DNA of 64,000 nt from a virus. The translations under genes and the position numbers were made by a program. A model generated the notes under the pieces. The model did no database searches. It was not told the origin of the DNA and saw only the letters and a program-made list of their open reading frames with translations. The stretch covers positions 42,735 through 106,734 of IMG/VR virus record IMGVR_UViG_3300027151_000002; one strand, written 5' to 3'. The first letter of the stretch is position 1, and each line of letters opens with the position of its first letter. Below are positions 2,445 to 61,107 of this stretch, one piece after another.

Positions 2445-2520
2445 TTTAAGGGATGAGGGGGAGTCATAATAGCTATTATCGTTTAAGACTAGACTGTATT
2501 TAGCACTGCCTTTTTGAGAG

Positions 2521-5500
2521 ATGGCCGATCAAAGAATTACGGAACTCGTCGAACTTCCTCAGGGAGGCGTAGCTTCTAACGACGTACTACCCATTTCGGA
2601 CGTTAGCGCCAGTCAAACCAAGAAGGTGCAAGTGAAGAGCCTGATCCAGGCAGGCTTTAACATTGCTGACGCTTCAACTCTTGATATTTCAAAGATTAAT
2701 CAAGCCAGTATTGCAAAACTTACTGGCTCTTCCATTGCCCCTAATACGCTCACTTATGACAAGATACAGCAAGTAAGCGCTAATAAGCTTCTAGGTCGCA
2801 GTAGTTCTACTGGCAATGTAGAAGAGATTGATTGCACTGTTTATATTCGCACTCTTCTTGATGATGCCAATGCTGCTGGTGCACGTTCCACATTGGAATT
2901 GGGAATAGTTGCCACTGGCAACACTATCAATACCAGTCTTCTTGAAGACTTAAGCATTACCACTGGTAAGATCAATAATTTAGCAGTTACGGCCGCAAAG
3001 CTTGCTAGCGGCGCGGTAGAAACAGCCAAGATTTTTGATGGTGCTGTCACTTCTGCAAAAATTGAAACCAGTGGCATTACAGGGAATAATGTAAGTGCTG
3101 GCGCCATTGATACTGTTCATCTAGCTGCAAGTGGCATTACGCTTGCAAAAATGGCAGCCAATTCAGTTGGCACCATTCAATTAGTTGATAGTGGCATTAC
3201 GCAGGCAAAATTGGCCAGTGGCGCCATCTCTTCAGCAAATATCGCCGACAGTGGCATCACGCAAATTAAGCTTGCTAGTGGCGCTGTAAATACAATCAAT
3301 TTGGTTGACAGTGGAATCACTGCCGCGAAATTAGCTTCCGGCGCTGTCACCATTGAAAAATTGGCGCTTGCTTCCGGCGAGCTATCGGGCGTAGTAATCA
3401 CTGCGAGTTCCATTCCTTCTGGAAGCTATACAAGTGGTTCCATTCCAACTGCAGCCATTGAAGATAATGCCGTCACTTTTGCCAAGATTCAACAAGTGGC
3501 AAGTGGCGTGCTGCTTGGTCGAGCATCTGCTGGTAGCGGCAACGTAGAAAGCATCACACTTACTGCGGCAGGCAGGGCATTGTTGGATGATGCTGATGCC
3601 ACTGCACAGCGCACTACGCTTGGACTTGGTTCGTTAGCCGTAAAAAATACAGTAGGAAGTGGAGATTATGACTCTTCTTCCATTGTCACTGGAAACATTG
3701 CCGACAGTGCAATCACCACTGCAAAGCTTGCTGATAGTGGCGTTACTACTGTCAAAATTGTAGATGCAAACGTTACGGCAGACAAGCTTGCTAGTAATTC
3801 TGTTACTACAGCCAAGATTATTGACGGTGGCGTTACAACTGCCAAGATTGCTGACGGAGCTGTTTCTTACGCAAAAATTCAAGCCACTTCTACAAGCAAT
3901 GTGTTGCTTGGTCGCTCTTCAGCAAGTGGCGGTACTGTAGAAGAAATCTCTTGCACTTCTGCGGCGCGTTCTATTCTTGATGATGCAACTATTGCTGATA
4001 TTCGCTCCACTCTTGGTCTTGGCACATTAGCCACGCAAAACGGCACCTTTACTGGTACGTCCACTGGTACTAATACTGGCGACCAGACCATCACGCTTTC
4101 TGGAGATGTTACAGGCACTGGCACAGGGGCGTTTGCTGCCACTATCGCCACTTCTGCAGTCACTTCAGCAAAGATTAATGACGGGGCTGTTACCACTGCA
4201 AAAATTGCGGATGGTGCTGTTACCAGCGCCAAGATGGCGAATAATTCTGCTGCCATTGTTGCTGGCTCCACTCCTGTTGGTAGTGGCATCTTTATTGGCC
4301 AGCAATGGCTAAATACTGGCACTGGCGTTGAATACACTTGGACGGGAAGTGAATGGCAGCGACAGTCTGGTCTTTCCACTGCTGTCATCTCTGGCGACAC
4401 TGTTTACAGCTTTACCACCTCCTATCCTGATGCCTTCAGTGCATCCATTGTTCCTTCGTTAAACACGCAAGTTGCCACGCGCTTCTTTGCTGGTCCTGCA
4501 AGCGGCAGTGCTGATGCTGCTCCGACTTTCCGTGCCATCACCGCCAATGATCTTCCTAGGGCTACCACGGCAGCATTAGGCGTAGCTCAAGCTGGTACGG
4601 GCCTAGTAACTGTCAGCGGCATCTTTAACCACGCGAATAGCGTGGCGTCTGGCATCTATTACAAAGTAACAGTGGATGCACAGGGGCACGTTAGTGCTGG
4701 TCAGACAAGCTTGGTTGCGGATGACATTCCGTCTCTTCCTGCAAGCAAAATTACTACTGGCACATTTGGTAGTGGCTTAATTGCGGATGATTCCATTCTT
4801 GCTTCTAAACTTGCAAACTATTCAGTGAGTCAGTTTGGCGAAGCACCGCCGGTTGCTGATTTTATTGGACAATTCTTCTTCAATCCATTGGAGAAAGACC
4901 TTTACTTATGGGATGGTAACGTTTGGAACCCTGTTGGCATTAGCGTTGGCGAAATCATCTTTGGTGGCACATATAACGCAAGCGGAAATATTATTGCTAG
5001 CACCAGTAGCGATGGTGCTGCTGTTGGTTTAACCGTTGGGCAACCACTTCCCACTCCTTCTGCCACGTTTAATCGTTATTACGTGGTGGTAGCAAGCGGT
5101 GGTACTGGCACTTCGCCTGCTCCTGCTACTACTTTGCAGCCGCCCGACATTCTGCTTTGCAATGGTGCTGCTTGGACTGAAGTGGATGTTAGCTCCACTT
5201 ATCTTTCGCAGAGCGCTGCGCAGGTGTCCTTTACTCCTGCTGCAAGCATTTCTGCAAGCAACGTACAAGCTGCCATTGAAGAAGTTAGCAACGAATGTAG
5301 GAATGTTAATAACGTAGCGAGCGGCATTCTTGCCACTGGTTATGGCGGAACAAGCTTTAATTCCTACACGAAGGGTGATCTTCTTGTTGGCAGTGGAACC
5401 ACTCTTGTCAAGCAAGCAGTGGGAACAAATGGGCAAGTATTGACGGCTAATTCTGCGTTTGGTGGCGGTGTTCAGTGGGTGACGCCTGCAAGTGGCACAG

Positions 5501-6069
5501 TTCTTTCAGTGAGCGTTAATGCTCCGCTCACTGTTGTTAGCGGCACCACAACGCCAGTTATTTCCATCCCTGACGCTACGACAAGCGTGCGTGGCACCGT
5601 TCAGCTCACTGACAGCACGAGCACTACTAGCTCTACGCTTGCTGCCACTGCCACTGCAGTAAAGAGCGCTTATGACCTGGCTAATGCAGCATTGCCCAAA
5701 GCTGGTGGGACTATTACTGGTGCCGTTACATTCGGGACGACAGGCACGCTTTTCTTTGAGGGCGCCACTGATAACGCTTTTGAAATTCAGCTTACTGCTG
5801 CTGATGCCACGGCGGACAGGACAATCACGCTTCCCAACGTCACTGGCACTGTTGTCACTACTGGTGATACTGGCACAGTCACCAATACAATGCTTGCTGG
5901 CAGCATTGCTGATACCAAACTTAATACTATTTCCACCGCTGGAAAAGTTAGTAATAGCGCCACCACTGCTACCAGCGCTAACACTGCTAGCGCAATTGTC
6001 GCTCGCGATGCAAGTGGTAATTTCTCTGCTGGTACTATTGATGCCATCATTGATGAAGGCACGTTCTAA
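2521..6069 (+). CDS. Long tail fibre protein with 10-aa repeats
   Basis: 1182 aa; repeated (I/V)TxAKLAxGA units, three LLGR modules, fibre repeat RGTVQLTDSTSTTSSTLAATATAVKSAYDLA. Confidence 0.8.
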   Translation: MADQRITELVELPQGGVASNDVLPISDVSASQTKKVQVKSLIQAGFNIADASTLDISKINQASIAKLTGSSIAPNTLTYDKIQQVSANKLLGRSSSTGNVEEIDCTVYIRTLLDDANAAGARSTLELGIVATGNTINTSLLEDLSITTGKINNLAVTAAKLASGAVETAKIFDGAVTSAKIETSGITGNNVSAGAIDTVHLAASGITLAKMAANSVGTIQLVDSGITQAKLASGAISSANIADSGITQIKLASGAVNTINLVDSGITAAKLASGAVTIEKLALASGELSGVVITASSIPSGSYTSGSIPTAAIEDNAVTFAKIQQVASGVLLGRASAGSGNVESITLTAAGRALLDDADATAQRTTLGLGSLAVKNTVGSGDYDSSSIVTGNIADSAITTAKLADSGVTTVKIVDANVTADKLASNSVTTAKIIDGGVTTAKIADGAVSYAKIQATSTSNVLLGRSSASGGTVEEISCTSAARSILDDATIADIRSTLGLGTLATQNGTFTGTSTGTNTGDQTITLSGDVTGTGTGAFAATIATSAVTSAKINDGAVTTAKIADGAVTSAKMANNSAAIVAGSTPVGSGIFIGQQWLNTGTGVEYTWTGSEWQRQSGLSTAVISGDTVYSFTTSYPDAFSASIVPSLNTQVATRFFAGPASGSADAAPTFRAITANDLPRATTAALGVAQAGTGLVTVSGIFNHANSVASGIYYKVTVDAQGHVSAGQTSLVADDIPSLPASKITTGTFGSGLIADDSILASKLANYSVSQFGEAPPVADFIGQFFFNPLEKDLYLWDGNVWNPVGISVGEIIFGGTYNASGNIIASTSSDGAAVGLTVGQPLPTPSATFNRYYVVVASGGTGTSPAPATTLQPPDILLCNGAAWTEVDVSSTYLSQSAAQVSFTPAASISASNVQAAIEEVSNECRNVNNVASGILATGYGGTSFNSYTKGDLLVGSGTTLVKQAVGTNGQVLTANSAFGGGVQWVTPASGTVLSVSVNAPLTVVSGTTTPVISIPDATTSVRGTVQLTDSTSTTSSTLAATATAVKSAYDLANAALPKAGGTITGAVTFGTTGTLFFEGATDNAFEIQLTAADATADRTITLPNVTGTVVTTGDTGTVTNTMLAGSIADTKLNTISTAGKVSNSATTATSANTASAIVARDASGNFSAGTIDAIIDEGTF

Positions 6070-6143
6070 TCATTAGAAAACAAAAGCCTTTTAGAATTGC
6101 AAGAGACTAATTTGTCTCCTGTAATTCTGGAAGGCTTTTAATT

Positions 6144-7931
6144 ATGGCTGGTGTTCTTCAGCATCTGCGTTCATCGACGCTTAACAAGCGCCCTAATCCT
6201 GCGTCCATGGTTGATGGACAATTGGCCATTAACTATGCAAGTGGTAGTCCTGGAGCATTCTTTAAGGATACCAATGGTAATTTAGTGAAAGTGGGGCCTG
6301 TGCATGTTGGCGCAACGGCTCCTAATGTTAGTCCTGCAAGTGGCGGCACTGCTGGTAATAGCCTTGGCGAGCAATGGCTTGATACCAGTGGCGGCACTTA
6401 TGTGTTTAAGATTTGGGACGGTGCTGCATGGCGCAGTGAGGCTGGTGAGTTTGTAAACGTCACTGGCGACACGATGACTGGTGCGTTTGGTGTTGTCGCG
6501 GGCTCAGATTCCACGCCAGGACTATTTATTAGCGGGGACGCAAATACTGGTATTTACTCTCCTGGTGCAGACCAGCTAGCTCTAACCACTAATGGCACTG
6601 GGCGACTGTTTATTGACAGTTCAGGTCGTGTAGGGATTGGCACTACGAGCCCCGCATCAAAACTCGACGTATCTGGAGACATAAATTATTCGGGCGATAT
6701 AGGCACAAGCGGAAATGGCTTTATTTACTCCTACGGTGGAGGATCGCTTGGTGATGTCCGAACTGGACTTAAGCTTGATGGACAAAATAAAGCTTTCTTA
6801 GTTTTCACTGATGCTTTAGAACGCGCCCGCATCGACAGCTCCGGCAGGCTCTTAGTTGGTACGTCTACTGCGGATACAGCAAATGGCACGGCGCCTTTGC
6901 AAATCAGCACTGAAGGTAATACCGCAGATAGCGGAATCTTTATCCGCAACAGTAGTTCAGTAGCCTTTGCGGCTCAATTAAGGCTTGGTAGTTCTCGCGG
7001 AACCAAAGCAAGCCCCTCAAGCGTGGCAAGCGGAGATACTCTTACTGAGATTCATGGAGCGGGATACGACGGCAGCGCCTGGATTCGTGCTGCAAGCATA
7101 GGAGTTGTTGTAGACGGCACCCCTGGCACTAGTGACATGCCAGGCCGAATCATACTGAGCACGACCTCCGACGGGGCGAGTACTCCAACGGAGCGGATGA
7201 GGATTGGGAGTACTGGACGAGTTACTATTCAGAACAATACTGGTTCTTACGATGCCGGAGGCAGCGGTCCTGGCCTAGAAATATTTGCTGGCCAGGAAGT
7301 TGGTCGCTATTCATATCACTTCGGAGCTTACGTTACTGGGGGCGCAATTGGTCCTTATATTAGAAGCGCACAAAACAGTAATTGGGCATCACCAGTTAAT
7401 CTCGCTATTTTACATAATACTGGCTCATCATTTTGGTCAAACTTACTACCTGCAACAGATAATACTTATTCTTGTGGGGGATCAGCAGCTCGCTGGACAG
7501 CTATTTGGGCTGTCAACGGAGCCATCCAAACATCAGATATTCGTGACAAAACGGAAATTCGGCCTATTGAAAATGGTATTGATTTTATCAAGCGCCTCCG
7601 GCCTATTACCTACAAATGGAAGATTGGTGGATATGAAATAGAGCGCGATGAAGACGGTGCTCCCATTCCAGACGAAAACGGAAATCCAAGGCAGCATCCC
7701 GTTCCCGGTAATCGTACGCACTGGGGATTTGCATCTCAAGAGGTCAAGACAGTCGCCGACGAGTTCGGTATTGACTTTGGCGGATGGGTGTTAACCGATA
7801 AAAACGATCCCGACAGCCAGCAGGCTCTGCGTTACGACCAGTTCATTGCACCGCTGACCAAGGCTCTGCAGGAGGCGTTGGCTGAGATCGACGTACTTAA
7901 GGCCAAAGTTGCAGCTCTTGAAAGCGCGTAG
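6144..7931 (+). CDS. Tail fibre/spike with C-terminal intramolecular chaperone (peptidase S74-like)
   Basis: GRVGIGTTSP and ERMRI repeats; TSDIRDKTEI...GFASQEV...LRYDQF and a terminal coiled coil. Confidence 0.85.
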   Translation: MAGVLQHLRSSTLNKRPNPASMVDGQLAINYASGSPGAFFKDTNGNLVKVGPVHVGATAPNVSPASGGTAGNSLGEQWLDTSGGTYVFKIWDGAAWRSEAGEFVNVTGDTMTGAFGVVAGSDSTPGLFISGDANTGIYSPGADQLALTTNGTGRLFIDSSGRVGIGTTSPASKLDVSGDINYSGDIGTSGNGFIYSYGGGSLGDVRTGLKLDGQNKAFLVFTDALERARIDSSGRLLVGTSTADTANGTAPLQISTEGNTADSGIFIRNSSSVAFAAQLRLGSSRGTKASPSSVASGDTLTEIHGAGYDGSAWIRAASIGVVVDGTPGTSDMPGRIILSTTSDGASTPTERMRIGSTGRVTIQNNTGSYDAGGSGPGLEIFAGQEVGRYSYHFGAYVTGGAIGPYIRSAQNSNWASPVNLAILHNTGSSFWSNLLPATDNTYSCGGSAARWTAIWAVNGAIQTSDIRDKTEIRPIENGIDFIKRLRPITYKWKIGGYEIERDEDGAPIPDENGNPRQHPVPGNRTHWGFASQEVKTVADEFGIDFGGWVLTDKNDPDSQQALRYDQFIAPLTKALQEALAEIDVLKAKVAALESA

Positions 7932-7951
7932 TCCACATCGCTACTAGCTCT

Positions 7952-7982
7952 GGCGGTTTCCCGAAGAAACCGCCTTCTTTTC
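7952..7982 (+). terminator. Intrinsic terminator
   Basis: GGCGGTTTC-CCGAA-GAAACCGCC followed by a T-rich tract. Confidence 0.7.
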
Positions 7983-8017
7983 CATTGCTAAACTAACGAA
8001 GACCATTCTTTCTGATC

Positions 8018-8329
8018 ATGGCAATTACTTACACATGGGCGGTGGCCAATATGGACCGCACGCTTTCAAATGGTTACGTGGGCACTGTTCACTATACAAT
8101 TTCTGCCGATGATGGCACCTATGCAAGTTCGGCCTATGGCAGTCTTGGTCTTGAAGCTCCTGACGAGGACAATGCCATTCCTTACGCTCAGCTCACTCCC
8201 GAAATTGTCATCGGCTGGGTGAAAGAAAAGTTTGGCGATGAGAAAGTAGCAGAAATTGAAGCTGCTCTTGCCGTTCAAATTGAACAGCAACGTACTCCCA
8301 CCACTGGCACTGGTCTTCCTTGGGCTTGA
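8018..8329 (+). CDS. Small acidic tail-fibre-associated protein
   Basis: 103 aa, IPYAQLTPEIVIGWV...GLPW; directly after the fibre gene. Confidence 0.6.
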   Translation: MAITYTWAVANMDRTLSNGYVGTVHYTISADDGTYASSAYGSLGLEAPDEDNAIPYAQLTPEIVIGWVKEKFGDEKVAEIEAALAVQIEQQRTPTTGTGLPWA

Positions 8330-9124: not shown

Positions 9125-9376
9125 ATGCCGGAAGTATCTCTCATTTCGACTGCTAATGGCAGTGTTGCATTAATTGGCGAAAATAATACAGGGTCTAGCG
9201 CCATCTTTTCTAGCGATGATGGCAATGCTGTTATCGTCAGTGCTTCAAGCACTAATGCAGCTATCATTAATAGTGATTCCGTTGCTTCTTCTATGGTGGT
9301 TGCGTCTTCAGTTGGAGCGCAAGGACCACAAGGAGACAACGATAACGCTATTGCTTATTCCATTGCTTTAGGATGA
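9125..9376 (+). CDS. Small structural protein
   Basis: Ser-rich, GAQGPQG, ends AIAYSIALG. Confidence 0.5.
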   Translation: MPEVSLISTANGSVALIGENNTGSSAIFSSDDGNAVIVSASSTNAAIINSDSVASSMVVASSVGAQGPQGDNDNAIAYSIALG

Positions 9377-11866
9377 ATGGCTAAATATCTCGTTTCTGGC
9401 TATACATTCTCGCCTGGCGTTGCTGGCTCTGGCAGTATTACGATTAGCGGTATTTTTCCGCTAGAGCAATTTTTGCTTGCTACAAATGTCACTGATAATG
9501 TAGTTATTTATCAATTCAATTCGCCGGCACGAGGCGGTAGTGTTAGCAGCGTTTCGGGAAATACGACGCTATTCCTTAATGCTGACACTAGCGGCATGAA
9601 CGCTGCAGATAAAGTGCAGCTTTTTGTTGATGATGGCGCAGATATTCAAGTGGAGATTGCTAATGCAAGCGTAGAGATTAGCAATGATAGCGGCAATCCA
9701 GTACCTGCAAGCATTGCAAGTTTACCATTACCGTCTGGAGCTGCGTCTGAAGCCACTGCGTCTGGCATTAGAACTGCCATCGCTAGCGGCGTAAATGTTT
9801 ACCCTGCGAATATTACTACTAAATTCAGGGAATCGTTTGAAAGCTTTTCTCCTGGAACTAATTGGACTTTAACTACAGCTTCGGGGGACCTTGTTCAGCT
9901 AGATGGAAATGCAATGTCTGCGTCCTATCTAGTTATTTCTAAAGATCCTCTAGTCGCAGACGGAGAAACAGTTTTACAGGGAATCACTAACTATGACATG
10001 CCTTTAGAGGCTGCAGTTGGCTTAAGTATGTCCCAGCGAGTATTGGGACAAGAGCTGTCAGTAGAAATTATTAGCACAGACGCAGGTCTCACCCCTCCTT
10101 CTGAATTAACCATTGCAAGTATTTCGCAATCAACTACCACTTTGACAGTTAATACGTCAGGCGCCCATGGTCTTGTTCCTGGCAAGCGTATTGGTATTTA
10201 TGGAGTGAGTGATAGTCGATTTAACTATCCGTCTTTAGTTGTTGCGACCATTCCTTCTACCACGCAGTTCACTTGCACTGCTGGACCTGGTGGTACCATT
10301 CCTTCTGTAACGGCAGGTCCATTTACTTCCGGTTTTGTTTACCAGCGCTCTGCATTGGGATATGCAAGGGATGGGATGTCGCAAATTTTTGAGAACGCTA
10401 CTGCCACTAACTCATCTTTATACGTGCGCGCCAATAGTGGCGATGTTCTTCCTGGCGGTGCTGCGAATGGTAACCATTCAACAACCGTCAACACGACTGT
10501 TGGAACACAAGGTATTAATGCTGCTTTCACTTACTCATGGTTTCCAGCCACTGAATTTAGATATATTTTGCAGGCAGACAGGGCTCAGTATCAAGATGCT
10601 GCAGTTGACAGTATTGGTGCGTTGAATGCCAGGATATTTAGAACGCAGGTGGTTCCTGATTTTACAAAACAATATAAGCTGCGTTTTCGATTTACCAATA
10701 ATAAAGGGCTTACTGTTCCAACTGCACAAATTGTTTCTGCAGTCAAAGCCGGCTCTACCACTGCCACAATTACAACGTCAACAGCGCATGGTTTAACAAC
10801 TGGTGATCAAATTGTCATCTATGGCATTCGTGATCAAACTAACTTCGCCAACTTGACTACTGCCACTGCAGTTGCCTCCACCCCCACGTCCACTTCTTTC
10901 ACCATTGCTTTTGGTGCTTCTGCCACTGCTACCAGTTATGGTGGCATGGTGGCGCGAGTGCAAGGCGGAAGCATTCCTGCCGCCTTTACAACTGTTGCCA
11001 TTCAGTCTGCAGCCAACGATGGCACTGCATTAACTCTCGTTGGTAGCGGCAACTGGGCCGCTTCAGTTGGGGACTATGTGAATGTTTATAGCTGTAGAAA
11101 CGATTCGACTGGTGCATCTTTAAATGTGGATGGCGTCTATAAAGTTGCAAACGTTGCTACTACGACAATAACTTTACTTCCCATTGGAGGAACTGTTCTT
11201 CCTGCCACTTTTACCACTACAAATGCTGGCGGTACGATCATTAAACGTACAGACGCACGAATTGGCTTTGTTCGTATTTTTGATTATCTCCGTGAAAGAG
11301 TGGAGATTCAAGCTAATTCAACGCAAGCAGCTTCTGTTCCAGTACAGTTAACTCACCAAGCAAGCGTTAATGCGCTTAATACTGCAGGCTCTGCAGCGCA
11401 CGATGCTGCGGTTGCTGGTAACCCTGTAAGGATTGCAGGACGTGCTCTCACTGCCAACTACGCAAACGTTGCCACTGGCGATACGGCTGATCTAATCACC
11501 ACTTTACAAGGTGCATTAATCACTCGTCCATATCAAATTCCTGAGCTTGAATGGTCCTACGCTGCAACTAGTAGTGGCATTTCAAACACAGCAGACGTGG
11601 CATTAGCTGGCGCTGCCGGTGCTGGTTTAAGACGCTATCTCACTTCTTTGGCGGTTAAAAACGCGAATGCTACGGTGACAGAAGCCGTAGTAAAGGATGG
11701 TAGTACTGTAATTTGGCGCGGACACCTCAGTGGAACCATGACATCAACAGATCAAATTGTTTTTAATAATCCATTGAAAACGTCCGCTAATGCTGCTTTA
11801 AACTTTGCTTGTGTAGCCTCCGGCGCTCAAGTGTATGTCAATGCTCAAGGATATACTGCTCCATAA
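9377..11866 (+). CDS. Large virion structural protein
   Basis: 829 aa, Thr/Ala/Gly-rich, duplicated TxxAHGLxxG beta domains. Confidence 0.6.
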   Translation: MAKYLVSGYTFSPGVAGSGSITISGIFPLEQFLLATNVTDNVVIYQFNSPARGGSVSSVSGNTTLFLNADTSGMNAADKVQLFVDDGADIQVEIANASVEISNDSGNPVPASIASLPLPSGAASEATASGIRTAIASGVNVYPANITTKFRESFESFSPGTNWTLTTASGDLVQLDGNAMSASYLVISKDPLVADGETVLQGITNYDMPLEAAVGLSMSQRVLGQELSVEIISTDAGLTPPSELTIASISQSTTTLTVNTSGAHGLVPGKRIGIYGVSDSRFNYPSLVVATIPSTTQFTCTAGPGGTIPSVTAGPFTSGFVYQRSALGYARDGMSQIFENATATNSSLYVRANSGDVLPGGAANGNHSTTVNTTVGTQGINAAFTYSWFPATEFRYILQADRAQYQDAAVDSIGALNARIFRTQVVPDFTKQYKLRFRFTNNKGLTVPTAQIVSAVKAGSTTATITTSTAHGLTTGDQIVIYGIRDQTNFANLTTATAVASTPTSTSFTIAFGASATATSYGGMVARVQGGSIPAAFTTVAIQSAANDGTALTLVGSGNWAASVGDYVNVYSCRNDSTGASLNVDGVYKVANVATTTITLLPIGGTVLPATFTTTNAGGTIIKRTDARIGFVRIFDYLRERVEIQANSTQAASVPVQLTHQASVNALNTAGSAAHDAAVAGNPVRIAGRALTANYANVATGDTADLITTLQGALITRPYQIPELEWSYAATSSGISNTADVALAGAAGAGLRRYLTSLAVKNANATVTEAVVKDGSTVIWRGHLSGTMTSTDQIVFNNPLKTSANAALNFACVASGAQVYVNAQGYTAP

Positions 11867-14776: not shown

Positions 14777-15259
14777 ATGCCAAGAGCGAATGGTCCTGAT
14801 GAGCTGCTTTATTCTCTCATTGAACTTCGCCCTGGAGATGCAAAACGTAGATTTCGTAAGAGTATTTTTGAAGATTATTTTCTGAGGGGACCATTTGGGC
14901 AGTGTGCCTGTGCATATTGCGGGGAATGGAAAGAAAAGCTTACGATTGACCACATTGTTCCCAAGAGCAAAGGAGGCCCGCATTTCAGCCGTTGGAACAT
15001 GCTTCCCGCATGCAAAAGCTGTAATCTTCGTAAAGGAAACCTTCCAATGCTGGAATGGTGGCGAGTGCAACCATTCTGGACCGAGAAGCGAGAGGAGATT
15101 GTGATGGCATGGGTGTATTGCAATAGCTTTGTTAGCGCCCACACTGACCAGAAGGAGCTTGAAGCATGGTGCGAGAAGAAAGGGATTGTGCTGCCGATGC
15201 ACCAAACAATTGAGCATGAAAAAGCCCCCTTATGGGGGCTTTGTTGCAATGCTGCTTAG
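14777..15259 (+). CDS. HNH endonuclease
   Basis: CAYCG...[12 protein letters not shown]...N...CKSCN. Confidence 0.9.
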
Positions 15260-27367: not shown

Positions 27368-27543
27368 TCCATTGTTGGATTGGGATTATGACAAACGAAG
27401 CGTGATGCAACTTGCTACGGCAAAGCTTGAACGTAGGCTTCAATACTGGCGAGAGAAAGAGCAGGAGGAAATCCTGAAGCGATATCGTCTCGTCACTTCC
27501 ATCTAGCCAAATTGCCAATTTCTACACACTACGAGGTTCAACA

Positions 27544-27753
27544 ATGACTCAAGAACATCCCATCACCCCAATGAGCGACTTCCACCCCGCACCATTCGAT
27601 GACTTTTCCACCGAACTGCGCGATCCGTGGCCCGTTGTGGAGCGGCTACGCATGGCACTGCGCGAGGCCGAGCGCTACTGCCTCGGCGCTGAAAACACCA
27701 CCGGGCAGTGCATCACATCCCTTCTTGAAATTCTTCCTGACGAAGATGACTGA
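27544..27753 (+). CDS. Hypothetical protein at the genome junction
   Basis: GAGG RBS, MTQEHPITP...; GC content rises here. Confidence 0.5.
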   Translation: MTQEHPITPMSDFHPAPFDDFSTELRDPWPVVERLRMALREAERYCLGAENTTGQCITSLLEILPDEDD

Positions 27754-28006
27754 CTTCCGAGCGCTGTGCGCCCGCATGGCTGACGAGCTGGACCATTACC
27801 GGCAGCTTTTGATGGATGACCGACGCGAAGCACATGCGTTGGCGACAGAAGCCCGCGCCGCACTTGCTCAGCCCAAGCCGCCGAGCTTGAGGGAGCAGGC
27901 GCTAGATGCCCTCACCCTTCTATGCAAAGGGCCGGACGCAACAGCTTTTGTGACGTGTAGAGACACCATCCGCCGTGCTCTCGAACAGCTTCCCGACAAC
28001 GAGTAG
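27746..28006 (+). CDS. Hypothetical modular protein
   Basis: MTDFRALCAR...PPSLREQAL...TIRRALEQLPD; its TAG stop is part of a TAG-N9-CTA site. Confidence 0.55.
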   Translation: MTDFRALCARMADELDHYRQLLMDDRREAHALATEARAALAQPKPPSLREQALDALTLLCKGPDATAFVTCRDTIRRALEQLPDNE

Positions 28007-28222
28007 TCACCTTCACTAATTACGCCAACCCATGCCCACCAAGCTCAAAGCCAGCACCCTCCCCGTCAACCTCACCGCCTACCAGCGCGCCATCGACGCC
28101 GCCGCTCGCACCGTTTCCGGTATCCCGCGCTGCCAGCTAGAGGCCATCGTCGCCGCTGCCATCACCGCCATTGGCAAACCAACAGATGACAACCAAGCGG
28201 CCTGAAAACCAACCCTGTCGCC

Positions 28223-28786
28223 TTGTCTCCCTCTGCGGTCAGTTCCTCACCGTCAATGGCACCTTCTCCGCAGACCCTGCCAGCGCCCTCACAGCCGAAC
28301 GCTGGTGGCTTGAACGAGAACAACGACGCATCAACACCCTCTCCATCATCATCCGCGCCTAGTGCCATCACCTTCAACGTGATCGGCATGGAACCAGCAA
28401 CCCAAGGCTCTAAAAGCCATGTCGGTAACGGGATCATGCGCGAAACCAATCAGCGCCTCCGTCCCTGGCGCTCTCTCGTCACCGACGCAGCCCTAGCAAC
28501 CAATACCCCACTCATCAATCACCCCGTCTCCATCTCAATAACCTTTCGCTTCCTACGCCCCAAAGGCCACTACAACAAATCCGGCCTATCCCCTAAAGCA
28601 CCAGCCCACCTAACCTCTCGCCTAAAGGGCGACATCGACAAACTTTCCCGTGCCGTGCTTGATGCCCTCACTGGCTCACTTCTTCACGACGATTCTCAAG
28701 TGGTTCAACTGGCTGCCCACAAGCGCTACTGCACCGCAGAAGAAAAACCTGGTGCCCTCATCACCATCATCCCGCTGGCAACCTAA
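28223..28786 (+). CDS. rusA: RusA-family Holliday junction resolvase
   Basis: PATQGSK, DIDKLSRAVLDAL, DDSQVV...KRY. Confidence 0.85.
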   Translation: MSPSAVSSSPSMAPSPQTLPAPSQPNAGGLNENNDASTPSPSSSAPSAITFNVIGMEPATQGSKSHVGNGIMRETNQRLRPWRSLVTDAALATNTPLINHPVSISITFRFLRPKGHYNKSGLSPKAPAHLTSRLKGDIDKLSRAVLDALTGSLLHDDSQVVQLAAHKRYCTAEEKPGALITIIPLAT

Positions 28787-57559: not shown

Positions 57560-58222
57560 TCAGGCGGCAACGGCATTAAGCTGCTCCATCAGGAAGTCGC
57601 GGTGTGCGGCGGTCTTGATGTAGTCGGCAGCCTTCTTGTCCGGCGGCAGGCTGAACCGCTCTTGGAAGGCCAAGACGATCTGCTTGCGGCGTTCATCCGA
57701 CACCTTGAGCACCGCTTCCACCAGCTCTTGGATCTCAGCGGCACTGAGCCGATCTGGGTTGGGGGAGCTGGGCGCCTTCTTCGCTGGCGTCAGCTTGGCG
57801 GCTGGTAGCTTGCTAGCGCTAGCGCCTGCAGGCTGCGCGTCGTTGGCGTGGTCGCCGTCGTCATCTTCAATGCCTGCAGCCAGCGACAGGATTGAAAGCA
57901 GCGCATAGCGACGGCTGTATGTCGTCGCGCCACCCCAGTCATGCAATGGATTTCGCCCTTTGGTCACTGTGAGCGGCAGGTGGCTATCAATCCTTTCTCC
58001 ACTGGTGTGCAGCAGAGAAGTAACCAGTAATTGCTCTCCAGCCTCTGCTCCAGGTTGGAATGTCTGGACTACTGCCAATCCATTCTTCGATAACGCTGGG
58101 AGAACAGTTGATAGCACAGTGGCAAGATCCGCATACTTGCCGTACTGAGCATTCGCTTCCTTGTGAATTGTTGAAACATCTTGGTGGAAGGCGCAAAGTG
58201 CCTTCGTGAGTTCAGCGGTCAT
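57560..58222 (-). CDS. erf: ERF-family single-strand annealing protein
   Basis: KYADL, LLHTSGE, GGATTYSRRYAL...EDDDG. Confidence 0.9.
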   Translation of the reverse strand: MTAELTKALCAFHQDVSTIHKEANAQYGKYADLATVLSTVLPALSKNGLAVVQTFQPGAEAGEQLLVTSLLHTSGERIDSHLPLTVTKGRNPLHDWGGATTYSRRYALLSILSLAAGIEDDDGDHANDAQPAGASASKLPAAKLTPAKKAPSSPNPDRLSAAEIQELVEAVLKVSDERRKQIVLAFQERFSLPPDKKAADYIKTAAHRDFLMEQLNAVAA

Positions 58223-59679: not shown

Positions 59680-61107
59680 CTAGCCTAACCCTAAGGAGGA
59701 GATAGCCCCGCAGCCGTCCAAGCGCAGCACCACGGCCTCAACCGCTCGCTCGCGTACCAGCACCTTCTCCACAAAGCGCACAAACATCTCGCGTGTGGCC
59801 TCCTCGTCGTTTGCCATCAGGCTCCACGCCGTCTCGTTGCCCAGCTGCTTGCGCATCTCAACCGCCGTTGCCTCAACATCCAGCCGGTGCCCGTGCATCT
59901 GCATCAACGCGCTGAGCTTCATGCGCTTGTGCAAGATCGCCTCCTGCAGGTCTGGATCCTGCCGACCTTCCAGCTCCCTGATCTCCTCATCAAGCTTGAT
60001 CGCGTCATCCAGCTGGCCGTTCTTCATGCCATTGCTTGCCGTCAAGTAGGCGATCAACTGCTCGCGGCTGGCCTTCAGCTTTGACCAGATCGCATCCTTC
60101 ACCGTCTGCACTTTGATCCGGTTGCGCTTTTCGCTGGCGCACGGCCAATAGGTGCAGCGCAGATAGATCGGCCCCAGCCGCACATGGTGCTGGTAACTCA
60201 TAAACCGTCCGCAGTGGCTGCACACCACCAACTTGGTCAGCTCACGCACGTAGCCCTTCAGCAAGCCGCTGCGCTTGCGATCAACGTGTTCAAGGATCCG
60301 CGCCTGAACCTTGGCGTGCTCCACCGCACTGATCAGCGGCTTGTGCGCGTCTGGCACGACCTCCTTGTAAACCCCTGCCTTGAGCCGGCGCTTCTTCAGC
60401 CGCCCGTCTTGGTCTCTGTAGGTCTCGTCATGGCCATAGACCCGGTAGCCCGCCAGCGTCGGGTTCATCAGCCAGCTGCGCATTCCCGGCACGCTCGTCC
60501 AGGGGCAGCCCGGCAGCTCCTTGGCCTGCCGCAAGAGCGGCCGCAGCTGACCGCTCTCCAAGAACTGCTGCACCAACCAACGCGCAGCCTCAGCCGTTTC
60601 CGGGTCAAGCTCGTAGTTGGTGCGCTCTGCGTTGAAGCGGTAGCCATAGGGCGCCTTCGGCCCGAGCGGAATCAGCAGCTTGCGCTGGTACGCCCGCCCG
60701 TGCCGCACCCGTTCACTGAGCCGCTCGCTTTCGGCCTGGCCGAGGTTGATCAGCATGCGCGCCACTAGCCGCCCGCCGATGGTGGCCAGGTCCAAGGCGT
60801 CATCCAGCGCCAACAGGCTTGGCGTGTCCTCAGCGCTGAAGTAGCTCAGCAGCTCAGCGCCGTGGGCCATGGAGCGGCTGAGTCGATCCAAGCGCGTGCA
60901 GATCACCCGATCCAGTTGCCCGGCTCGGCACGCAGCCATGAGAGCGTTGAGCTGTTGCCGGTCGTCTTTGGTGCCAGAGGCTACGTCGATGAACTCGACC
61001 GTTTCGTGACCTGCTGCCGCAGCCCGCAGCCGATCTAGCTGCTGCTCAAGCGCCGCCTCCTGCTCGTCAGAGCCGGTGGACACCCTGGCGTAAAGCCCGA
61101 TGCGCAT
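59680..61107 (-). CDS. Large serine recombinase (integrase)
   Basis: YARVST, SG, RLDRLSR, ESERLSER, APYGY, Zn ribbon CSHCG...C....C, coiled coil. Confidence 0.93.
   Translation of the reverse strand: MRIGLYARVSTGSDEQEAALEQQLDRLRAAAAGHETVEFIDVASGTKDDRQQLNALMAACRAGQLDRVICTRLDRLSRSMAHGAELLSYFSAEDTPSLLALDDALDLATIGGRLVARMLINLGQAESERLSERVRHGRAYQRKLLIPLGPKAPYGYRFNAERTNYELDPETAEAARWLVQQFLESGQLRPLLRQAKELPGCPWTSVPGMRSWLMNPTLAGYRVYGHDETYRDQDGRLKKRRLKAGVYKEVVPDAHKPLISAVEHAKVQARILEHVDRKRSGLLKGYVRELTKLVVCSHCGRFMSYQHHVRLGPIYLRCTYWPCASEKRNRIKVQTVKDAIWSKLKASREQLIAYLTASNGMKNGQLDDAIKLDEEIRELEGRQDPDLQEAILHKRMKLSALMQMHGHRLDVEATAVEMRKQLGNETAWSLMANDEEATREMFVRFVEKVLVRERAVEAVVLRLDGCGAISSLGLG

Follow-up and report, generated by a model that had tools for sequence, protein, structure and literature searches.

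The tail-fibre gene Q (595 aa, 6144..7931, plus strand), located in the 64,000-nucleotide stretch of viral DNA analysed here and referred to as the window, contains conserved islands alternating with variable modules. These islands are DNA-identical across phage families and the breakpoints between related fibre genes are found at them. The most probable reading, to which we give about three chances in four, is that these conserved structural-motif boxes serve as joints for in-frame homologous recombination, and that the interrupted palindrome TAG-N9-CTA is a by-product of the boxes and is not itself recognised. A sequence-only reading of the window had proposed TAG-N9-CTA as a cassette-exchange signal marking the boundaries of tail-fibre modules. 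This interpretation is partly supported: the sites lie in stretches delimiting exchangeable fibre modules, but the evidence does not favour the palindrome as a cut signal.

The window makes up the final 64 kb of an IMG/VR record of 106.7 kb, which is rated complete. Near 28 kb (27500-28500), the GC content jumps from ~0.44-0.51 to 0.55-0.63, with about 0.47 and about 0.60 as the levels on either side. Q is located in the AT-richer part, and the record could be two phages joined together or a chimeric assembly. Q is preceded by a second fibre gene and followed by virion genes. Its open reading frame matches PHROG tail-fibre families (E = 2e-59) and Pfam Peptidase_S74. The fibre terminator is directly followed by a small conserved gene (DUF7936 / phrog_7802, 8018-8329), and a similar small gene is located behind the fibre gene of several isolate phages. 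An almost verbatim copy of the fibre gene region (window 5900-8300) was also found in at least 24 river or estuary metagenome runs from 2018-2019, part of which may be source samples.

Q probably encodes a modular trimeric tail fibre. It starts with an N-terminal anchor and ends with an S74 chaperone, and three variable modules lie between them; all parts are described below on the plus strand. The anchor domain (6144..6574) belongs to a shared backbone: nts 1-431 of the gene are ~90% identical to many homologues, many residues within 1-113 are invariant, and the similarity of Q to all top homologues ends 2 nts ahead of box A. Island A (6558..6619) holds the site 6577-6591, around which codons -2 to +6 are wholly frozen at silent positions, not TAG and CTA alone. 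Island C (6621..6654), with a motif of the SSGR-VGIGTT-SP type, holds the site 6631-6645 and is the only part matched there by contigs of other phages. It is followed by variable module 1 (6655..6817), for which no DNA homologue was found in 50 related fibre genes. Island D (6818..6869) carries the site 6853-6867 at its 3′ end; it is 94-100% identical in 35 genes and is also present in isolate Synechococcus phages of other families. In variable module 2 (6870..7107), homologues were found for the last 40 nts only. The fourth island of Q (7108..7223) is a homologue of island E, as indicated by 86-94% matches at gene nts 965-1005 and 1015-1073, with a pile-up of contig depth at 7115-7195. It lacks TAG-N9-CTA, and its codons at 7137-7166 provide neither TAG nor CTA. 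Variable module 3 (7224..7532) gave no DNA hit. The Peptidase_S74 intramolecular chaperone domain (7533..7928) was assigned from PF13884 (E = 3.7e-12, residues 464-542), with a score of 46.8 bits against a cut-off of 22, and includes the catalytic SDxxxK motif at residues 464-469 (window 7533-7550). The TAG stop codon with its downstream CTA (7929..7943) marks no module boundary and precedes a terminator-like hairpin (7952-7974) and a T run.

At 6627-6647, Q carries a C-type motif spelling at the first motif position past box A, where 31 homologues are spelled otherwise. Boxes A and C are just 54 nts apart in Q, which is consistent with a short form of the fibre generated by recombination between two motif copies.

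The four TAG-N9-CTA sites previously reported at 6577, 6631, 6853 and 7929 were verified at their exact coordinates, and the three internal ones indeed share one codon phase (phase 1 of the open reading frame 6144..7931, xTA Gxx ... xCT Axx). The recurrence of this phase elsewhere was also confirmed, since 41414 and 50949 are in phase 1 of their own open reading frames and 9369 straddles the junction between 9125..9376 and the frame starting at 9377. The proposal that the sites mark module boundaries holds for the internal sites, each of which lies 3′-terminally in a conserved island, ahead of a variable segment. Site 7929 is a mere stop codon with a CTA behind it, and the fourth island has no site. 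Counts of N9 sites were about as claimed (12, against 7 for N7, 8 for N8 and 10 for N10), but other spacings are also high (13 for N11, 15 for N2 and 13 for N15). The 12 sites compare with 5.9 +/- 2.7 in shuffled windows, 4 out of 100 shuffles reaching 12, and a synonymous-codon shuffle of Q gives an uncorrected probability of 0.004 for at least four sites. Clustering, which had been put forward as the actual signal, does not stand up: because the pattern was picked after looking, and because clusters just as improbable occur in the window for 22 of the 832 3-Nk-3 palindrome/spacer combinations, the cluster is no more than chance on the window alone. Thus, the sites and their phase are real, but their cluster within the window is at chance level. 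Outside the fibre gene, TAG-N9-CTA occurs at background level in this window. Four copies of the reverse arrangement, CTA-N9-TAG, were noticed at 2489-3019, where the upstream fibre gene (1182 aa) begins; they were rejected as a signal, as their cluster is at chance level and the peptides are unrelated.

The architecture was established from a codon alignment of 14 fibres. Five islands of ~34-70 nts, high in amino acid and codon identity, alternate with hypervariable segments in which amino acid identity drops to 0.1-0.2, and each palindrome is located at the 3′ end of an island. The islands have in common an E-R-x-R-I-D-S-S-G-R type motif that leads into a hydrophobic/Gly/Thr strand. Box D is shifted by one codon relative to boxes B and C, which are paralogous in register. 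The motif aligns weakly (E ~6e-5) to the solved Bdellovibrio fibre chains 8oml, 8ond and 8ol4. In the reading preferred here, this motif recurs in solved S74-type fibres of Bdellovibrio and of phages. Related motifs were described in such fibres as repeated capping loops on the edges of their trimeric beta-helix domains (PMC10769870). From the alignment, the islands may be capping-loop elements at beta-helix edges. An AlphaFold2 monomer model of Q, built from a 20-sequence alignment, was too poor to place the islands (mean pLDDT 56, pTM 0.29).

Related fibre genes extend this picture. A codon-unbiased peptide search retrieved 42 related fibre loci, many of them on ~74-77-kb contigs. These genes contain 1-5 TAG-N9-CTA each, nearly always in phase 1, distributed over five recurrent boxes with differing spacers. 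In 38 non-redundant fibre genes, 94 in-phase sites were counted against 16.4 expected from synonymous shuffles, while the spacings N3, N6, N12 and N15 were at or under expectation in the same genes. Identical 15-mers are found in the fibres of Autographiviridae isolates, of a siphovirus and of phages with ~75-kb contigs. The isolates concerned, Synechococcus phages of other families, are S-CBP3, S-CBP4, S-CBP42, S-H1, DSL-LC07, the siphovirus S-LBS1 and 7B11-B, and isolate fibre genes hold 23 sites against 7.1 expected. The 15-mer of site 6631 occurs in ~20 other fibre genes, at variable positions. Between different phage families, the DNA of the islands is 94-97% identical and the flanks have no detectable similarity.

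This identity bears on the possibility that the islands are maintained purely as an indispensable protein motif, their shared DNA reflecting recent common descent with no role in recombination. Such a view would account for the conservation of the motif as protein as far as Bdellovibrio fibres and for the codon identity of the islands (0.64-0.79), which exceeds the N-terminal value (0.42-0.72) by only a moderate margin. However, it sits poorly with near-identical DNA shared by phage families whose flanks are unrelated and with the location of the ends of near-identical segments, all five of which coincide with islands. Furthermore, the same peptide is spelled in many ways across IMG/VR, so the protein does not dictate the spelling. 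We therefore regard it as unlikely, though it is the least improbable of the alternatives.

The positions of the breakpoints argue for the islands as recombination joints. For DNA matches of at least 90% between fibre genes, 31 of the 79 internal ends lie within 15 nts of a box, compared with 8.2 +/- 2.6 for random positions, a count to be read with the tendency of BLAST match ends to be pulled towards conserved stretches. For matches of at least 96%, the five internal ends are inside islands (A, A, B, C and E), and the segment from island B to island C is common to two otherwise different fibre genes. Left ends pile up ~42 nts upstream of the box and right ends just past it, delimiting a conserved block of ~70 nts that finishes at CTA. 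As this block reaches ~35-42 nts upstream of TAG but stops at CTA, the conservation is not symmetric. The expectation that mosaic breakpoints would map to the TAG-N9-CTA sites was borne out for the islands, but breakpoints are found equally at boxes without the pattern (41 ends for 50 boxes, against 52 ends for 87 boxes with it).

Logan contigs of four river and estuary runs, in which rare recombinant molecules are invisible, provide the metagenome evidence. Contig depth jumps on the islands in the four runs, reaching 880 on island D against a baseline of 6 in run X4. The extra contigs, which come from other phages, pile up on the islands only and have flanks unlike Q. On island C, contigs have loose ends ahead of 6621-6630 and depart through joints at 6646-6654, and the contig joints listed correspond to genes of other phages that share two islands at different distances. 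Logan assemblies of this very phage start or stop inside island D, at 6830-6859, in three runs. Island D is a repeat of at least 31 nts common to many co-occurring genomes, which is one practical reason for the fragmentation of fibre genes in metagenomes. In the river and estuary samples, these islands are common to dozens of phages that occur together.

The palindrome itself was followed in boxes defined by their peptide, so that broken instances were also counted. TAG-N9-CTA is present in 22 of 35 A boxes, 35 of 53 B and C boxes, 17 of 31 D boxes and 13 of 18 E boxes, and is missing from the other 13, 18, 14 and 5, respectively (28-45%). Site 6631 has 31 positional homologues, all of which lack the pattern. 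A total of 95 distinct D-type contexts were collected from IMG/VR with an anchor lying upstream of the site and clear of it; 56 carry the pattern and 39 lack it, and the leucine codon is TTA in 66, CTG in 14, TTG in 9 and CTA in 5. The GC content of the flanks does not predict the pattern in D-type boxes (0.498 vs 0.500). It had been expected that the silent positions of TAG and CTA would be invariant and N9 free to change, a prediction contradicted by the data, in which both vary alike: silent-site conservation is 75% and 89% at the TAG and CTA positions, against 72%, 64% and 93% at N9 control codons. Silent TAG/CTA positions slower than their neighbours were not found in classes A, D and E, nor in B and C taken separately. 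Similarly, Fisher tests gave no sign of joint retention of TAG and CTA in four classes and in the sample of 95 contexts (p = 0.27-0.69), class A alone giving 0.02.

The same peptide sampled more widely leads to a similar result. Across IMG/VR, GNVGIGTT searched with fully degenerate third positions carries the pattern in 35 of 226 cases, where the frequencies of GTA and ACT predict 10%, and stratifying by GC gives similar figures. The pattern in this sample therefore occurs at roughly the product of the codon frequencies. GTA in these sequences tracks GC content, falling from 47% in AT-rich flanks to 8% at a GC of 0.45-0.52. A codon-context bias outside the boxes was not found as a cause, the frequency of xTA before G being 0.16-0.21 and that of xCT before A 0.16-0.22.

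The codon that opens the box might also be selected in its own right. GTA, TTA or CTA would act as a slow codon, pausing translation where modules start, to aid the folding of the trimer, with ACT/TCT being incidental. This would be in line with the frequency of xTA at the first codon (75-88% of boxes vs 16-23% elsewhere in the same genes), with the interchange of GTA, CTA and TTA and with the lack of tRNA genes in the 64-kb window. However, replacements by TTG and CTG are common (23 of the 95 D-type contexts), CTA beats TTG as the neighbour of TTA by merely ~2:1 in a count over the box lists, and GTA follows GC content in the wider sample. Hence, a slow codon is an improbable cause. Even less credit can be given to a hairpin of RNA or DNA with TAG and CTA as the arms of its stem. 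The arms are complementary, but the stems would be just 3 bp, and folding energies at the three sites do not differ from those of shuffles (z = +1.1, -0.3 and +0.1), which effectively refutes it.

A residual anomaly is observed in the fibre family, where no other of the 1024 palindromic 3-Nk-3 patterns is as enriched as TAG-N9-CTA (97 vs 21.4). This pattern is also the sole one present in all five conserved classes, the runners-up being found in three, and codon context does not account for this. Since B and C are paralogous in register and D is one codon off, the pattern represents about four independent occurrences, and the family-wise probability was roughly estimated at 0.002-0.05. As the common peptide pattern dictates four of the six bases, the coincidence comes down to two silent positions. 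It was considered that, in the fibre pool of Synechococcus phages, selection could act on TAG-N9-CTA as a DNA signal, which might for instance be targeted by a nuclease of phage or host that seeds recombination at module borders. If true, this would explain its sole presence in the five islands and the retention of TAG and CTA across the spacers of box A; we hold it to be very improbable.

The same low standing is given to the more specific proposal that TAG-N9-CTA is the recognition site of a dimeric nuclease or recombinase, XcmI-like in its geometry, making fixed in-frame cuts for cassette exchange. The first rank of the pattern in the family, its presence in the five islands and the several N9 versions between TAG and CTA in box A (Q, S-H1 and DSL-LC07) can be counted in its favour. 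However, the loss of the pattern in more than a quarter of the boxes of every class leaves the breakpoints unaffected, the half-sites are lost independently, their silent positions vary no more slowly than the rest and the conservation is asymmetric. The positional homologues of site 6631 lack the pattern and the same GNVGIGTT peptide elsewhere in IMG/VR shows no general enrichment. In addition, six specified bases are expected about once per 4 kb, and the non-fibre sites of the window are at background.

An HNH endonuclease domain (188-aa frame, ~14909-15040, plus strand) lies ~7 kb downstream of Q, and could be counted for a nuclease, but no link to the boxes was found. This agrees with the previous statement that no cognate enzyme could be identified, as none was found nearby beyond this generic HNH gene. 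A search for Endonuclease_7 gave no match in the record, nor in control genomes. Tyrosine integrase, RecT, RecA and YqaJ were not found in the record, and no recombinase of the four families tested is present in its AT-richer, fibre-bearing part. The only recombinases found are located in the GC-rich part, over 50 kb from Q, namely an ERF-family annealing protein (234-aa frame, ~57824-58204, minus strand) and a large serine recombinase (475-aa frame, ~60679-61095, minus strand), which is the sole serine recombinase found. Together they suggest a temperate element in the GC-rich part.

In the reading preferred here, that of boxes as recombination joints, the gene pool of Synechococcus phages keeps the islands near-identical in DNA and the segments between them unrelated. 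Judging from the breakpoints, co-infecting phages may cross over within the islands by homologous recombination and thereby swap modules in frame, an exchange made possible by the identity of the islands and their constant reading frame. Stretches of 35-50 nts suffice for phage annealing recombinases, as is known from recombineering. Repeated exchange would, in turn, keep the spelling of the islands uniform. TAG-N9-CTA would then arise because the peptide [L/V]-[G/A/V]-x-x-[T/S]-[T/S/N] forces four of its six bases, the remaining two being silent positions carried by chance in the locked spelling of the gene pool. Tail fibres set the host range of phages, and the islands help to read how cyanophage host range evolves: a single pool of fibre modules, linked through a few identically spelled islands, serves Synechococcus phages of different families. 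The palindrome adds no new mechanism and is rather a warning that frozen spelling in a few boxes can mimic a designed signal.

Several known systems resemble these boxes in part. XcmI reads the interrupted palindrome CCA-N9-TGG, and TAG-N9-CTA has the same 3-9-3 geometry and dyad symmetry. In contrast to sites of the XcmI type, the half-sites described here vary, the conservation is asymmetric, no cognate enzyme was found, and there is neither genome-wide avoidance nor enrichment outside the fibre boxes. Site-specific inversion systems, such as Gin/gix of Mu, Cin/cix of P1 and the shufflon of R64, also act in fibre genes. They depend on a neighbouring serine or tyrosine recombinase and on inverted crossover sites, at least 19-26 bp long, on either side of the alternative segments of one genome. 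The likeness lies in DNA sites placed inside a fibre gene at the border between constant and variable parts, leading to alternative C-terminal parts. However, the sites of Q are direct and in one reading frame, the gene is present in a single copy with no adjacent recombinase, and exchange would take place between genomes. On these grounds, an invertase or shufflon crossover site was rejected.

In structure, Q resembles the S74 trimeric beta-helix fibres, which include the Bdellovibrio MAT fibres, the L-shaped fibre of phage T5 (4UW8) and the endosialidase of K1F, and carry a C-terminal Peptidase_S74 domain with SDxxxK as in Q (PMC10769870). Besides the repeated capping loops, the Bdellovibrio study reported chimeric tips, and the motif of Q is one residue longer between Gly and Pro than the published consensus (PMC10769870).

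As a mode of exchange, the closest parallel is gp38 of T-even phages (GRM/HVS), in which short conserved motifs forming the structural core separate hypervariable segments, and exchange between phages at the motifs alters the receptor-binding parts. Q and its relatives show the same alternation, motifs that are DNA-identical between unrelated flanks and breakpoints within the motifs. They differ from gp38 in being S74-type trimeric fibres of another fold, in their Synechococcus hosts and the several phage families involved, in having five islands of 34-70 nts, and in that recombination is deduced from breakpoints rather than from crosses. The proposed 3-9-3 signal is not supported, and the swapping of fibre parts at whole boxes is a known way of changing host recognition.
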